Source: Escherichia coli (GTDB lineage Bacteria; Pseudomonadota; Gammaproteobacteria; Enterobacterales; Enterobacteriaceae). From it: a stretch of 64,000 nt of DNA. Positions 50,520 through 64,000 of the stretch are shown piece by piece (position 1 is the first letter of the stretch; each line of letters opens with the position of its first letter). The notes beneath the pieces were generated by a model. The model saw nothing but the letters and a program-made list of their open reading frames with translations, was not told the origin of the DNA and did not search any database. The position numbers were made by a program, and so were the translations under genes. The DNA is taken from assembly GCF_003018115.1 (NCBI RefSeq), contig NZ_CP027457.1, one strand, 5' to 3'.

Positions 50520-50524
50520 TTTGC

Positions 50525-50558
50525 TCTGCAAAACCTCTGCAAAACTCTTCTGCAAAAC
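50525..50558 (+). repeat. three direct repeats of tctgcaaaac immediately after the ompW stop (putative attL / integrase-binding region)
   Basis: tctgcaaaac at 50525, 50536 and 50549, followed by ctggtca..tgaccag hairpin plus T-run overlapping the int stop. Confidence 0.5.
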
Positions 50559-50564
50559 TGGTCA

Positions 50565-51695
50565 TCAAATGACCAGTTTTTTCCATTCCTTACCGCGTGC
50601 GTCGTTGTAAATATCGGTCATTTTTTGATTCGAATGGCCCAGCAAAATTTTGGTATCAATTCCCTGTTCTCTGAACAATCGTTCTGATAAAGATCTCTGC
50701 TCATGGAAAGAGGGTGGGGTGCCATTAGCACGCCAGTTGTAATCCACAGAATCCCGGGCTTTTTTAAATGCAACGGTTAACGTTGCTGGCTTAACCATCC
50801 CGCCGCGCTTAGCTGTCCCTTTAGCATGATGGTGGTGCAATAGCCACGGACTAAGAACGCAATCGCGACAGGATGACACCACATCATCCAGGGTGAGATT
50901 TAATTTATCGCAACGCAGAGCCAGAGGGATGGCAATCCGGGTTCCTGTTTTTTGCTGTTCGACATGAAGATAACCATCCCTGATATCCGAAAATTTCATT
51001 TTGCAAATATCTGAAAGGCGCTGGCCTGTCATCAGTGCCAGCAGCATACCACGCTGTAAAAAGTAACCATCCTTTTCCGCTGCATTATAAATCATCATCC
51101 ACTCATCAAAGGTCAGTCGTTGCCGTGATATCCGTACCTGTGGTTTTTTTGCCGATTCTGCAGGGTTAAAGCCTGGCGGGACATCGCCCGTTTGCTGGGC
51201 CTCCCGGAAAACATCAATCAGTACTTTCCTGAAAATTTGTCCCATTCTGTTATGTCCTTTTGCCTTGTAATCTTCCAGCACCGATACCACATCTTTTACG
51301 GTTATGGCATCTAAAGGTCTGGTACCAAAACGTTCATCAAATACCCTGAGAGGGGATGCTTTCTGTTTCAGTGTGTTGAGTTTGATCTCTCCGTTTTCAT
51401 ATCTTTCCTGTTGAATTTTTCGGTAACTATTCAGAAAAACCGAAACGGTTGATGAACCACCGGTATCACGAATAATTTTCTCCTGCAGAGTGAGCATTTG
51501 TTCCATTTGTTGCCTGGCAAGACGGCTGTTCGCTTCTGCTGCAATAGCTTCTGCCTGTTTCTGGTCAATACTGCCGAGCCCGTGATTTTTTCCTGTTATG
51601 GGATGCCTGTAACGCCAGTAAACTTTGTTATTTCTTTTGTCAAAATACGGAGATAATCCCGGAACTTCAGTTTTATATTTTCGTGGGCGCGCCAT
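50565..51695 (-). CDS. int: phage integrase (tyrosine recombinase, lambda Int-like)
   Basis: 376-aa ORF; N-terminal arm-binding-like region, C-terminal catalytic region with R...HxxR...Y pattern (HEQRSLSERL...LGHSNQKMTDIY). Confidence 0.9.
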   Translation of the reverse strand: MARPRKYKTEVPGLSPYFDKRNNKVYWRYRHPITGKNHGLGSIDQKQAEAIAAEANSRLARQQMEQMLTLQEKIIRDTGGSSTVSVFLNSYRKIQQERYENGEIKLNTLKQKASPLRVFDERFGTRPLDAITVKDVVSVLEDYKAKGHNRMGQIFRKVLIDVFREAQQTGDVPPGFNPAESAKKPQVRISRQRLTFDEWMMIYNAAEKDGYFLQRGMLLALMTGQRLSDICKMKFSDIRDGYLHVEQQKTGTRIAIPLALRCDKLNLTLDDVVSSCRDCVLSPWLLHHHHAKGTAKRGGMVKPATLTVAFKKARDSVDYNWRANGTPPSFHEQRSLSERLFREQGIDTKILLGHSNQKMTDIYNDARGKEWKKLVI

Positions 51696-51921
51696 CTTCC
51701 AGTATCCTCTTCAAAGCAGGGTGATCTGTGGCGATCACTTCCGGCTTGTTTACCATTCCGACAAAGCGAGCTCGAGGATCCACTCGCCAGTGTCTTCCAA
51801 CTTTTTTGGGGAGAGGAAATATCATTCCGGCTTTAGCGTATTTACTTAACGTGCCCGGAGTCGGGACCGGGTCACTGAATTCCTCTTTTGCCCACTCAGT
51901 GAGAAGAATAAGTCTTGCCAT
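51673..51921 (-). CDS. xis: excisionase (Xis-like)
   Basis: 82-aa ORF overlapping int start by 23 nt; lambda-Xis-like winged helix (EWAKEE...IFPLPKKVGRHWRV). Confidence 0.8.
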   Translation of the reverse strand: MARLILLTEWAKEEFSDPVPTPGTLSKYAKAGMIFPLPKKVGRHWRVDPRARFVGMVNKPEVIATDHPALKRILEDGAPTKI

Positions 51922-51985
51922 GAGAGTTGTTCGCTAATCATGGTCGCCGCCACTATAGCTTGCGGGCGACGACCGGGGTTGAACA

Positions 51986-62532: not shown

Positions 62533-62675
62533 CACCATGTGGACTATGGAGGCAATCTTTATTTGAGAATGCTTGCTGATTTATCGGTGTTCAAAAAACA
62601 GACGTAATTCAGATTGTATAAACGGCAGACAGAAAAAGTCATTGTTCTTGCGCATAAAATCCTCAGATTTACTGA

Positions 62676-62948
62676 GTGAAATGCGTCTCTTTTCATGGTT
62701 ATAGTCCGAGAGAAGCGATAATGCATTTCATTTCCTTTACGTCAGGAGGTGTTGTGAAAATCCCAGCCAGTTTGATCCCGGGGTTTTATGAGAGCATGCG
62801 CCCGGTTGTTGTTTACAGAAACAGTGATGGTTCTTTTCAATGTGGTTTTGTTATGCGAAGTAATGAGGTTGTTGTAAGCCTTTCTCTTCTTTCTGAGGTA
62901 AGAGAGTTGGCAGGATTACCTGTTGATGATATTCAGAAGCAGCTATAA
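62676..62948 (+). CDS. hypothetical protein
   Basis: 90-aa ORF after the TA pair; no recognisable motifs. Confidence 0.35.
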   Translation: MKCVSFHGYSPREAIMHFISFTSGGVVKIPASLIPGFYESMRPVVVYRNSDGSFQCGFVMRSNEVVVSLSLLSEVRELAGLPVDDIQKQL

Positions 62949-62983
62949 AATCAGGCTGACTTGAACCGTCGCTGAGAAACACC

Positions 62984-63271
62984 GTGCCACCGGAGATCCC
63001 GATGGCGCACGATAGCAGATTGCACAATTCTGCCGCCCTTGCCAGTAGGCAAGGGCGGTGTTCGCACGTATTTAAAACCGACTGGTTCCAGCATCCCCCA
63101 TGCACTGAAGAACAGGCCGAATGGCTGATTCAGTGCTACCGCAGACGTGGTTACGAGTTTCAGAAAGATCTCAGCTTCGATCGTCGTCACTGGATAATCT
63201 CCGTCAGGCTCCCTTATTCCGAACGCCCACCGCGTCCGTCCCGCACATTCCAGCAGCGCATCTGGAGGTAA
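62984..63271 (+). CDS. hypothetical protein
   Basis: 95-aa ORF whose stop abuts the start of the long open frame running to the window end. Confidence 0.35.
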   Translation: MPPEIPMAHDSRLHNSAALASRQGRCSHVFKTDWFQHPPCTEEQAEWLIQCYRRRGYEFQKDLSFDRRHWIISVRLPYSERPPRPSRTFQQRIWR

Positions 63272-63344
63272 CGTGCGGGTATTACTTCGACCTGTTCTGG
63301 TACCGGAACTCGGTCTGGTTATCGTTAAGCCAGGCCGTGAATCA

Positions 63345-64000
63345 ATGTCAGTATTCCATAACGGCAGAATATTGGTGGAGCCGGAACCGAAAAACATGCG
63401 CGGTCTGCCGTCCGGAGTCGTTCCTGCCGTTCGCCAGCCGCTGGCAGAGGATAAAACATTACTGCCATTTTTCAGCGATGAGCGGGTTATTCGTGCAGCA
63501 GGTGGTGCAGGTGCACTGTCTGACTGGTTATTACGTCACGTGAAATCCTGCCAGTGGCCACACGGCGATTATCATCACAGCGAAACCGTCATTCACCGTT
63601 ATGGTACCGGCGCGATGGTGTTGTGCTGGCACTGTGACAACCAGCTGCGCGACCAGACATCAGAATCACTCGATCAACTTGCTCAGCAGAATCTGGTTGC
63701 CTGGATGATTGATGTCATCCGTCACGCAATAAGCGGTACGCAGGAGAGGGAGTTATCGCTGGCCGAATTATCCTGGTGGGCGGCCTGCAATCAGGTGGTG
63801 GATGCACTACCTGAGGCAGTAGCGCGTCGTTCGCTGGGATTACCAGCGGAAAAAATCCGCTCCGTATACCGTGAGAGTGACATCGTACCGGGAGAACAGA
63901 CAGCCATCAGCATACTGAAGCAGCGCACAAAAAATATTGCGCTGCCACTTCACGTCCACCAGCAACAAAATCCACCACAGAAAAAAACGGTTGTCAGTAT
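63345..64000 (+). CDS. hypothetical phage protein, 3'-truncated by window end
   Basis: frame open from stop at 63195 to 64000 with ATG at 63345 (GTG at 63273 possible); hand-translated MSVFHNGRILVEPEPKNMRGLPSG...CWHCDNQLRDQ...; absent from ORF track because no stop within window. Confidence 0.5.
   Translation, partial: MSVFHNGRILVEPEPKNMRGLPSGVVPAVRQPLAEDKTLLPFFSDERVIRAAGGAGALSDWLLRHVKSCQWPHGDYHHSETVIHRYGTGAMVLCWHCDNQLRDQTSESLDQLAQQNLVAWMIDVIRHAISGTQERELSLAELSWWAACNQVVDALPEAVARRSLGLPAEKIRSVYRESDIVPGEQTAISILKQRTKNIALPLHVHQQQNPPQKKTVVS

Follow-up and report, generated by a model that had tools for sequence, protein, structure and literature searches.

ompW of Escherichia coli as a prophage integration site and as a host-phage chimeric gene

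Genes and features at the locus

Up to ompW, the window analysed here (the whole stretch of E. coli DNA, 64,000 nucleotides long) is organized as in K-12, with yciA, yciB, yciC and ompW in the flank and 97.8% identity to K-12 over positions 48346-50521. In K-12, ompW is directly followed by yciE/yciF, with no insert. From 50565 to its end, the window instead encodes a lambda-type int and xis, an exonuclease of 823 aa, an early-left and immunity region of dicB/DicA type, replication genes resembling O and DnaC, and accessory modules. These results bear out much of the original prediction, which was made from the letters alone and had described K-12-like synteny up to ompW, yciE/yciF as the K-12 neighbours of ompW, and a lambdoid prophage whose integrase, xis, exonuclease-domain gene, DicA-type switch and replication genes were all found where it had placed them. 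The features around the end of ompW are as follows.

49866..50385, plus strand: host-derived ompW, codons 1-173, in register and identical with K-12 ompW up to the core
50386..50413, plus strand: att core, attL copy, 28 bp, CAGTGTGGTACATGGATATCGATACCAC (three-way attB/attL/attR alignment)
50414..50519, plus strand: phage-borne substitute ompW 3' end, 35 codons and stop, sharing about 78% identity with the native end and holding a 15-nt insertion
50524..50559, plus strand: three direct copies of CTGCAAAAC in the spacer that separates the stops of ompW and int (TRF)
50565..51695, minus strand: tyrosine integrase of lambda type, 376 aa (Pfam Arm-DNA-bind_1 E 5.7e-22, Phage_integrase E 6.8e-17)
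51673..51921, minus strand: excisionase, 82 aa, overlapping the int start (Pfam Exc E 4.9e-07; annotated as excisionase in relatives)

The CTGCAAAAC repeats are probably P' arm-type Int binding sites, a candidate role suggested by their position and conservation: these three are the only copies in the 64-kb window, they are kept in the published prophage PPompW_132418, and a fourth was found at the attR of a relative, on the P-arm side and roughly 120 bp to the left of the core. Because no tRNA was found within 49500-64000, the integrase is not a tRNA-targeting one, and a tRNA as integration target is ruled out. Beyond xis, the early-left and immunity region comprises the following.

51986..54457, minus strand: 823-aa exonuclease (Pfam Rv2179c-like on residues 641-813, E 2.2e-61; phrog_2082 over the full length)
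54553..54741, minus strand: DUF1482 protein, 62 aa, assigned by position to the ydfD place of the Qin order (Pfam DUF1482 E 1.1e-13)
54738..54926, minus strand: dicB, 62 aa, cell-division inhibitor (Pfam DicB E 7.4e-34, full length)
55104..55143, minus strand: short dicF-locus allele, about 40 nt, with a terminator-like site (aligned to K-12 Qin dicF)
55464..55778, plus strand: YmfI-family ORF, 104 aa, opposite strand, in a low-GC patch (NCBIfam YmfI_phage 109 bits, equivalog cut-off 140; phrog_8894 E 6.6e-34)
55702..56082, minus strand: 126-aa hypothetical protein (phrog_6937 on residues 5-74; only the N-terminal ~70 aa conserved)
56082..56234, minus strand: DUF1391 protein, ydfA-like, 50 aa (Pfam DUF1391 E 7.2e-29; K-12 ydfA is a DUF1391 gene in the same position)
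56424..56831, minus strand: DicA-like immunity repressor, 135 aa (Pfam HTH_3; HTH only, without a peptidase domain)
56909..57136, plus strand: Cro/YdaS-like regulator, divergent from the repressor (Pfam P22_Cro E 2.6e-17)
57120..57641, plus strand: YdaT-family protein, CII-position gene (Pfam YdaT_toxin E 9.8e-06)

The C-terminus of the 823-aa protein is a DEDD-type 3'-5' exonuclease domain (Rv2179c-like) and its centre matches the RecE model, with a weak match in the PDB to 8KEL, an exodeoxyribonuclease. Its identification as RecE (exodeoxyribonuclease VIII) was rejected, as the score with the NCBIfam RecE equivalog was 268 bits, its cut-off being 1269, the match covered residues 453-625 only, the C-terminus is Rv2179c-like, and no RecT-type partner lies beside the gene, xis being directly next. 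At the dicF locus, the allele retains the 5' end of DicF (UUUCUGGUGA) and a terminator hairpin of the predicted RNA; in the alignment to K-12 Qin, gaps of 17 and 2 nt together with substitutions show the interior of DicF to be absent or replaced. Neither the DicF covariance model (Rfam RF00039, up to E = 10 on 54900-55500) nor a 35-nt DicF pattern allowing 3 mismatches gave a match, which rules out a full DicF sRNA at this shortened locus. Two other RNA candidates were discarded. The first, an AgvB anti-sRNA at 55104-55173, had CACAACA-like motifs and a 15-bit Rfam match, which falls far short of the gathering score (56); the locus is also wrong, the place of AgvB genes being the moron site, downstream of PR' (PMC4104026). 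The second, STnc100 at 54894-55111, reached a sub-threshold 31-33 bits and covers the conserved dicB leader. The YmfI-family ORF is unannotated in the RefSeq relatives, and the 126-aa protein had no match in Pfam, NCBIfam or PADLOC. The replication genes and accessory modules complete the visible cargo.

57580..58599, plus strand: O-like replication initiator, start codon uncertain (phrog_391 E 1.3e-90)
58606..59346, plus strand: DnaC/IstB-like helicase loader, 246 aa (Pfam IstB_IS21 E 5.8e-14)
59376..60137, plus strand: DUF1627 protein, 253 aa (Pfam DUF1627 E 2.5e-84)
60134..60382, plus strand: truncated DNA-binding gene, a pseudogene in relatives (RefSeq 'missing C-terminus'; partial phrog_30109 and phrog_323)
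60495-60569, plus strand: isrK-like RNA (Rfam RF01394, 51.2 bits, gathering score 50)
60595-60679, plus strand: C4 antisense RNA (Rfam RF01695, 69.4 bits, gathering score 45)
60734..61285, plus strand: ORF6N-domain anti-repressor, 183 aa (Pfam ORF6N E 1.9e-20; phrog_2379 'anti-repressor' E 1.1e-77)
61388..61712, plus strand: hok/sok type I toxin-antitoxin locus, hok ORF 61557-61712 (Rfam sok 117 bits, gathering score 59; Pfam HOK_GEF E 2.7e-23)
61815..62523, minus strand: type II toxin-antitoxin pair, RelE-family toxin 62125-62523 and HTH antitoxin 61815-62132 (Pfam RelE PF06296 E 8.3e-33; HTH_3)
62754..63271, plus strand: two small conserved phage ORFs, 62754-62948 and 63002-63271 (phrog_31309, phrog_1212; 'hypothetical' in relatives)
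63273..64000, plus strand: DUF968 (YdfU-like) gene, incomplete at the window end (Pfam DUF968; phrog_96; 1050 nt in relatives)

The O-like gene contains 3.8 perfect 12-nt repeats at 58087-58132 (TRF), which are candidate origin iterons. The DNA-binding gene at 60134-60382, which is truncated, and the 126-aa gene, kept only N-terminally, have a decayed or mosaic look. Judging from gene order, which is like that of Qin and Rac, the ydfA-like gene, a function-unassigned gene, the short dicF allele, dicB, the DUF1482 gene in ydfD position, the exonuclease gene, xis and int would form a leftward early operon behind the DicA-like repressor, and the cro/ydaS-like and ydaT-like genes, the O-like initiator and the DnaC-like loader would form a rightward one; an anti-repressor putatively controlled by the isrK/C4 RNAs, hok/sok and the RelE-type toxin-antitoxin pair follow the replication genes. 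PADLOC returned only weak HTH-type matches to defence systems, and no LexA box (CTGT-N8-ACAG) was found in the prophage part of the window.

The att core within ompW

When attB (K-12), attL (window) and attR (NZ_AP027258.1) were aligned, only 50386-50413 was identical across all three, with reciprocal flanks, attL equalling attB left of the core and attR equalling attB right of it. The 28-bp core occurs once in K-12, as attL in the window, and as attR in both NZ_AP027258.1 and NZ_CP027462.1. The recombination point thus lies inside the ompW coding sequence, 106 bp ahead of the K-12 stop codon, and because phage DNA begins at 50414, the segment 50414-50519 is already phage and not host. The original prediction of an insertion directly downstream of ompW, with the element starting at 50520, had the locus right; the site, however, is within the gene, and the phage supplies the 3' end. 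Nor does 50520-50565, proposed there as a probe for attR, serve that end, as it is phage P'-arm DNA of which a single copy of a 9-nt motif recurs near attR, the duplicated sequence being the core itself.

A prophage lying in the ompW-yciE spacer, with ompW wholly chromosomal and att within 50520-50565, would agree with an int stop 45 bp past the ompW stop, with ompW being an intact ORF and with the repeated motif at 50524-50559. Such an arrangement is nevertheless refuted, as ompW departs from K-12 exactly past 50413 and carries a 15-nt insertion, relatives have the native ompW 3' end at attR, and the core is all that the three att sites share. In the best-supported reading, the lambda-type integrase joined the 28-bp core of attP to the identical ompW sequence (codons 174-183), and the P' arm of the phage brought in a surrogate 3' end, so that the lysogen keeps an intact 217-aa OmpW with an altered segment, and the native 42-codon end stays behind at attR as a fragment adjoining yciE. 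The gene annotated as ompW in lysogens is, then, a host-phage chimera. This corrected anatomy has practical value: the boundary is to be drawn inside ompW, and attR can be found by means of the 28-bp core, not of the spacer.

Between the last two beta-strands, TANYKLGGAQQHDS of K-12 is replaced by TAKYKSDGRKLAKGSYSDN, 5 residues longer in the window, and the codons of the last strand show synonymous differences only. Apart from the swapped segment, the mature chimeric OmpW equals the solved E. coli OmpW (2MHL/2F1T). The segment is most likely extracellular loop L4, based on the published strand and loop topology of the OmpW family (PMC2993939) and the sequence match to 2MHL/2F1T; the assignment rests on these because the single-sequence AlphaFold2 model of the chimera was unusable (pLDDT 28.5). 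At least three phage-borne alleles of the segment exist, TAKYKSGVTTVKDS and TASYKFNGTPVKDA being found in addition to that of the window. Searching for homologues of the C-terminal 61 aa brought up mainly gene fragments, which were good for listing alleles and did not reveal the origin of the window allele. It is possible, although unlikely, that the ompW 3' end carried by attP is a selected lysogenic-conversion cassette, beyond passive homology. If so, the loop swap could alter antigenicity, or how sensitive the cell is to agents that depend on OmpW (colicin S4 and RB68-type phages, for example), and a functional swap would mean that the phage edits a host surface receptor merely through its choice of integration site.

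Extent and state of the prophage

Two complete genomes, NZ_CP027462.1 (99.8%) and NZ_AP027258.1 (99.6%), are near-identical to the window across 14.2 kb, and in both the element is a complete prophage, with genes for Q, lysis, terminase, capsid, portal, tail and J, followed by the ompW 3' fragment and yciE, with a core-to-core length of about 52.5 kb. The relatives also hold further pseudogenes, a methyltransferase fragment and an ORF6N pseudogene near attR. The hallmarks of a lambdoid element were found: a divergent repressor/cro switch followed by O/P-type replication genes (DicA-like, P22_Cro-like, YdaT-like, phrog_391, IstB/DnaC-like), an arm-binding tyrosine integrase with an excisionase at one end (Pfam), and direct copies of the att core bounding the element, with a single copy in the empty site and attR taken from the relatives. 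Based on this evidence, the 13.6 kb at positions 50386-64000 are almost certainly the left part of a lambda-like temperate prophage of ~52.5 kb that belongs to the published PPompW kind. Since the sequence analysed ends at 64000, it shows neither Q, lysis and structural genes nor attR for this genome itself; we infer that the right arm is also present here, and the prophage may be active.

A defective or cryptic remnant, such as Qin or Rac in K-12, seems quite unlikely here. It would account for the truncated gene at 60134-60382, the partly conserved gene at 55702-56082 and the additional pseudogenes in relatives, and the window ends ahead of any late gene; in the window, however, int, xis, the repressor gene, cro and the O-like and DnaC-like genes are each intact, and the genomes sharing 99.6-99.8% identity have complete replication, Q, lysis, head and tail gene sets as well as an intact attR. 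Composition gives no mark of a prophage boundary in the GC and skew profile, with GC of 0.41-0.54 for the element against 0.42-0.53 for the flank 44000-50500, as might be expected of conserved chromosomal content or of a non-phage genomic island. Both are, nonetheless, refuted, given that the genes are absent from K-12 at the ompW locus, that at least 80% of the stretch is found in just 48 of 5426 complete genomes, and that every module matches phage families (PHROG and others), with virion genes in the relatives.

The same counts do not agree with the idea of a strain-specific prophage, as the left arm is shared by those 48 genomes and the same type of ompW-end/integrase junction occurs in 1649 of the 5426 complete E. 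coli genomes (~30%). Equally, the cargo had been called the least characterised part of the window, yet nearly all of it in the window was matched to named Pfam, PHROG, NCBIfam or Rfam families, several of them without known function. This type of prophage is already known from PPompW and CP-933O/OI-57, and its visible cargo holds nothing new in kind.

Comparison with known systems

In STEC and other E. coli, ompW is already documented as a hot spot for prophage integration. Prophages integrated in it were described as PPompW in STEC O145:H28 (Nakamura et al. 2021, PMC8112680; GenBank LC567818-LC567841), and were defined by integrase identity above 90%, across more than 90% of the length, to the O145:H28 PPompW integrase, by a split ompW, and by a 121-bp attL/attR duplication (PMC8112680). 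With PPompW_132418 as reference, in place of EC112648_1574 used in that paper, the integrase of the window is identical at 363 of 376 residues (97%), and the ompW locus is split by the insertion; as to the duplication, attL and attR share 28 identical bp only, the remaining ompW end being 78% identical with a 15-nt indel. The two also have in common the three CTGCAAAAC repeats beside int and the int-xis-exonuclease-dicB-dicA/dicC order. In contrast, no more than 55% of the left arm could be aligned to the O145:H28 PPompW genomes, with 88% identity, the window element lacks paa/adfO and has other replication and accessory genes, and the loop allele is TAKYKSGVTTVKDS in PPompW and TAKYKSDGRKLAKGSYSDN in the window. 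By sequence comparison, therefore, the window element is a different mosaic with the PPompW integration module. The 21-bp attB that admits Stx2a phages into PPompW is absent from the window and the two close relatives. CP-933O/OI-57 of O157:H7 EDL933, inserted in yciD (that is, ompW; PMC9144400), shares the target gene, and O157:H7 genomes carry the junction type at ~80% identity, but it is a different mosaic, and the O157 examples fetched have the TAKYKSGVTTVKDS allele, one of them lying inside another prophage.

Qin of K-12 (dicA/dicC, ydfA-ydfB-ydfC-dicF-dicB-ydfD) resembles the window in module order, in its DicA, to which the repressor is 55% identical over 128 aa, and in the dicF flanks and dicB leader, which are ~95% identical. 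It differs in having another integration site and in being a remnant, and the window lacks the dicF interior and has the YmfI-family ORF on the opposite strand. The exchange of a gene end also has precedents, as e14 and phage 21 integrate at the 3' end of icd, bringing a substitute gene end; in these, as here, the integrase targets the 3' part of a coding gene and a diverged phage copy restores the frame. Here, however, the gene encodes an outer membrane protein, and the substituted part, variable between phages, most likely includes a surface loop. Finally, the C4 and isrK matches directly 5' of the ORF6N anti-repressor recall immI of P1/P7 (c4 RNA-ant) and the IsrK-anti-repressor module of Gifsy-1, a likeness seen at the level of sequence, in the different setting of a lambdoid prophage with a DicA-type switch.

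The junction inside ompW

The record for this locus needs to be corrected, as the original prediction placed the prophage directly downstream of ompW, but its boundary lies inside the gene, the ompW of the lysogen is chimeric, and the repeats at 50524-50559 are likely arm sites. Upstream of the prophage, annotation and comparison of the window place yciA, yciB, yciC and ompW in K-12 order, and positions 48346-50521 align to K-12 at 97.8% identity, after which similarity ends. In K-12, yciE, yciF and yciG directly follow ompW, which confirms the order given in the prediction. When the junction in the window was aligned with the uninterrupted ompW of K-12 and with the far junction of the prophage in the near-identical relative NZ_AP027258.1, CAGTGTGGTACATGGATATCGATACCAC (window 50386-50413) was the sole stretch shared by all three sequences. 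To the left of this core the window matches K-12, whereas to its right identity falls to 78% and 15 nt are inserted; right of the core, the far junction matches K-12 bar a few single-base differences and then continues into yciE. Because only this core is common to all three sequences, and its flanks match reciprocally, the phage recombination point lies within ompW, 106 bp short of the stop codon in K-12. Positions 50414-50519 are phage DNA completing the ompW reading frame, and at the attR of NZ_AP027258.1 and of a second near-identical relative, NZ_CP027462.1, the native 42-codon end of the gene remains as a fragment annotated as a pseudogene.

The att site had been proposed to reside within 50520-50565. 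This segment instead contains three direct copies of CTGCAAAAC, with no other copies in the 64-kb window, and searching for attR with it would yield nothing useful. In a relative, the P arm at attR contains one further copy, about 120 bp to the left of the core, and the repeats are conserved in PPompW_132418, one of the prophages found in ompW of STEC O145:H28. In lambda, tandem arm-type Int sites adjoin int, and a further site resides in the other arm. Because the layout here is the same, and the integrase carries an arm-binding domain, the CTGCAAAAC repeats are likely candidates for arm-type Int binding sites.

The chimeric OmpW and its variable segment

The OmpW of the lysogen has 217 residues vs 212, and is the same as the solved E. 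coli OmpW (2MHL, 2F1T) except for one segment, where TANYKLGGAQQHDS is replaced by TAKYKSDGRKLAKGSYSDN. Among ompW-integrating phages with nearly the same integrase, at least three versions of this segment exist:

Phage-borne alleles of this OmpW segment
TAKYKSDGRKLAKGSYSDN: this window
TAKYKSGVTTVKDS: O145 PPompW, O157, AZ155
TASYKFNGTPVKDA: strain 135

In the strand that follows, VRLDPWVFMFSAGYRF (16 codons), any pair differs by at most nine synonymous and no non-synonymous changes. Because these differences are synonymous only, the phage-borne ompW end is kept translatable and functional while the preceding segment varies. In the OmpW family, the barrel consists of eight strands, its extracellular loops are long and its periplasmic turns short (PMC2993939), and based on this topology the stretch joining the final two strands should be extracellular loop L4. 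Because OmpW is named as the receptor for colicin S4 (PMC2649078) and was recently reported to be that of phage RB68 (bioRxiv 10.64898/2026.04.02.716166), it is possible that the loop swap has a selected, receptor-editing role. A neutral reading is no less convincing: outer membrane protein loops diverge fastest anyway, and the phage copies may simply record earlier hosts, since some hosts among E. coli and E. marmotae have a long native allele, EVKYKSNGAVLPAGRYSDN, that resembles the allele of the window. In strain SA186 (L009, NZ_CP022730.1, 967-2477), OmpW has 217 aa and a loop allele that is both long and divergent, and it directly abuts trpA; yciE, yciF and yciG are missing, and there is no integrase.

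Gene content of the prophage

Every sizeable ORF from 50565 onward matches a phage family, and Rfam matches to sok, a C4 antisense RNA and an isrK-like RNA each reached at least the gathering score; the lambdoid prophage originally predicted is therefore present.

Features of the prophage part of the window
From 50565, leftward: lambda-type integrase, with arm-binding and catalytic domains
Overlapping the integrase gene, leftward: excisionase
51986-54457 (-): 823-aa protein with a C-terminal Rv2179c-like 3'-5' exonuclease domain
Leftward: DUF1482 protein, DicB, DUF1391 protein
Leftward: HTH repressor, 135 aa, 55% identical to K-12 DicA
Rightward: P22-Cro/YdaS-like regulator
Rightward: YdaT-family protein
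Rightward: O-like initiator, with internal 12-nt repeats
Rightward: DnaC/IstB-like loader
Rightward: DUF1627 protein; truncated DNA-binding gene
Rightward: ORF6N anti-repressor; hok
Between hok and the DUF968 gene: RelE-type toxin with HTH antitoxin; two small conserved ORFs
Rightward, cut by the window end: DUF968 gene

The early-left order is that of Qin, dicA-ydfA-...-dicF-dicB-ydfD. A RecE identity for the 823-aa exonuclease was rejected, as the RecE model matches its centre only (residues 453-625), the nuclease domain is DEDD-type, and no RecT follows; the database label 'exodeoxyribonuclease VIII' for this family looks misleading. At the dicF locus, whose flanks share about 95% identity with K-12, a shortened allele, UUUCUGGUGAUUCGGCGGAAAUGGAUAUCCGCCAUUUUU (55104-55143, -), retains the DicF 5' end and a terminator hairpin, while gaps of 17 nt and 2 nt, together with substitutions, leave the interior missing or replaced, and the Rfam DicF model gave no match there. 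At an identity of 95% or higher, about 100 records of E. coli contain the short allele, and 326, O157:H7 among them, do so at 90-95%; it is annotated in none of the matching records. A 104-aa YmfI-family ORF (55464-55778, +), in a low-GC patch and lacking RefSeq annotation in close relatives, converges on a 126-aa gene (55702-56082, -), whose end it overlaps and whose C-terminal third is not conserved.

A domain search found no peptidase (autocleavage) domain in the DicA-like repressor, and no LexA box was found in the prophage part visible within the window. The isrK-like and C4 RNAs lie directly 5' of the ORF6N anti-repressor and form with it (60495-61285, +) a module similar to that of P1 immI and Gifsy-1 but placed here inside a DicA-type lambdoid, and one that would provide a plausible induction route. 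In the O-like gene, 3.8 perfect copies of the 12-nt ACAGAGAATACA (58087-58132, +) encode repeated TENT residues; the lambda ori is situated within the O gene, and these repeats are candidates for putative origin iterons. PADLOC identified no defence system in the prophage part of the window, and the cargo is ordinary.

The whole element and its known relatives

At least 80% of window 49800-64000 is held by 48 complete E. coli genomes (best identity, 99.8%), two of which, NZ_CP027462.1 and NZ_AP027258.1, were examined. In both, the prophage continues with RusA, Q, a methyltransferase, two tRNAs, a NanS-p-type esterase, holin, lysozyme and spanin, followed later by terminase, capsid, portal and tail genes, J, Lom and tail fibres, and ends on the right at the ompW fragment before yciE, with a core-to-core distance of about 52.5 kb. 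Neither element has an annotated stx gene. Because of the near-identity to these relatives, the same right arm would be expected in the window's own genome. In close relatives (L004 39387-41250; also L001 22404-24266), the 1.86-kb stretch that separates the NanS-p-type esterase from an HTH-domain gene lacks gene annotation, and its only ORFs are short and contain peptide motifs that repeat internally; this would be roughly the position at which Stx phages carry stx.

The best matches in the phage collection were the PPompW genomes of STEC O145:H28 (55% coverage, 88% identity), lambda-like prophages in ompW defined by their integrase and the split ompW (PMC8112680); the integrase of PPompW_132418 is 97% identical to that of the window. 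CP-933O/OI-57 of O157:H7 EDL933 is inserted in ompW as well (PMC9144400). A 171-nt junction probe (phage-borne ompW end, spacer and int end), for which at least 80% coverage was demanded and of which an empty site could match only about 72%, found matches in 1649 of 5426 complete genomes, with about 157 records at 95% identity or higher. By these counts, the ompW integration module is common, and the mosaic in the window is a minority variant. The 21-bp secondary attB that allows a Stx2a phage to integrate into O145 PPompW was searched for and is absent here. In O157:H7 strain 6535WT (L005, 1159-2781), an ompW 3' fragment and then a PPompW-type integrase lie within another prophage and adjoin the 21-bp attB-in-PP sequence, which exemplifies the prophage-in-prophage arrangement already published. 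The element in the window is thus of a kind already described, at a well-known site.
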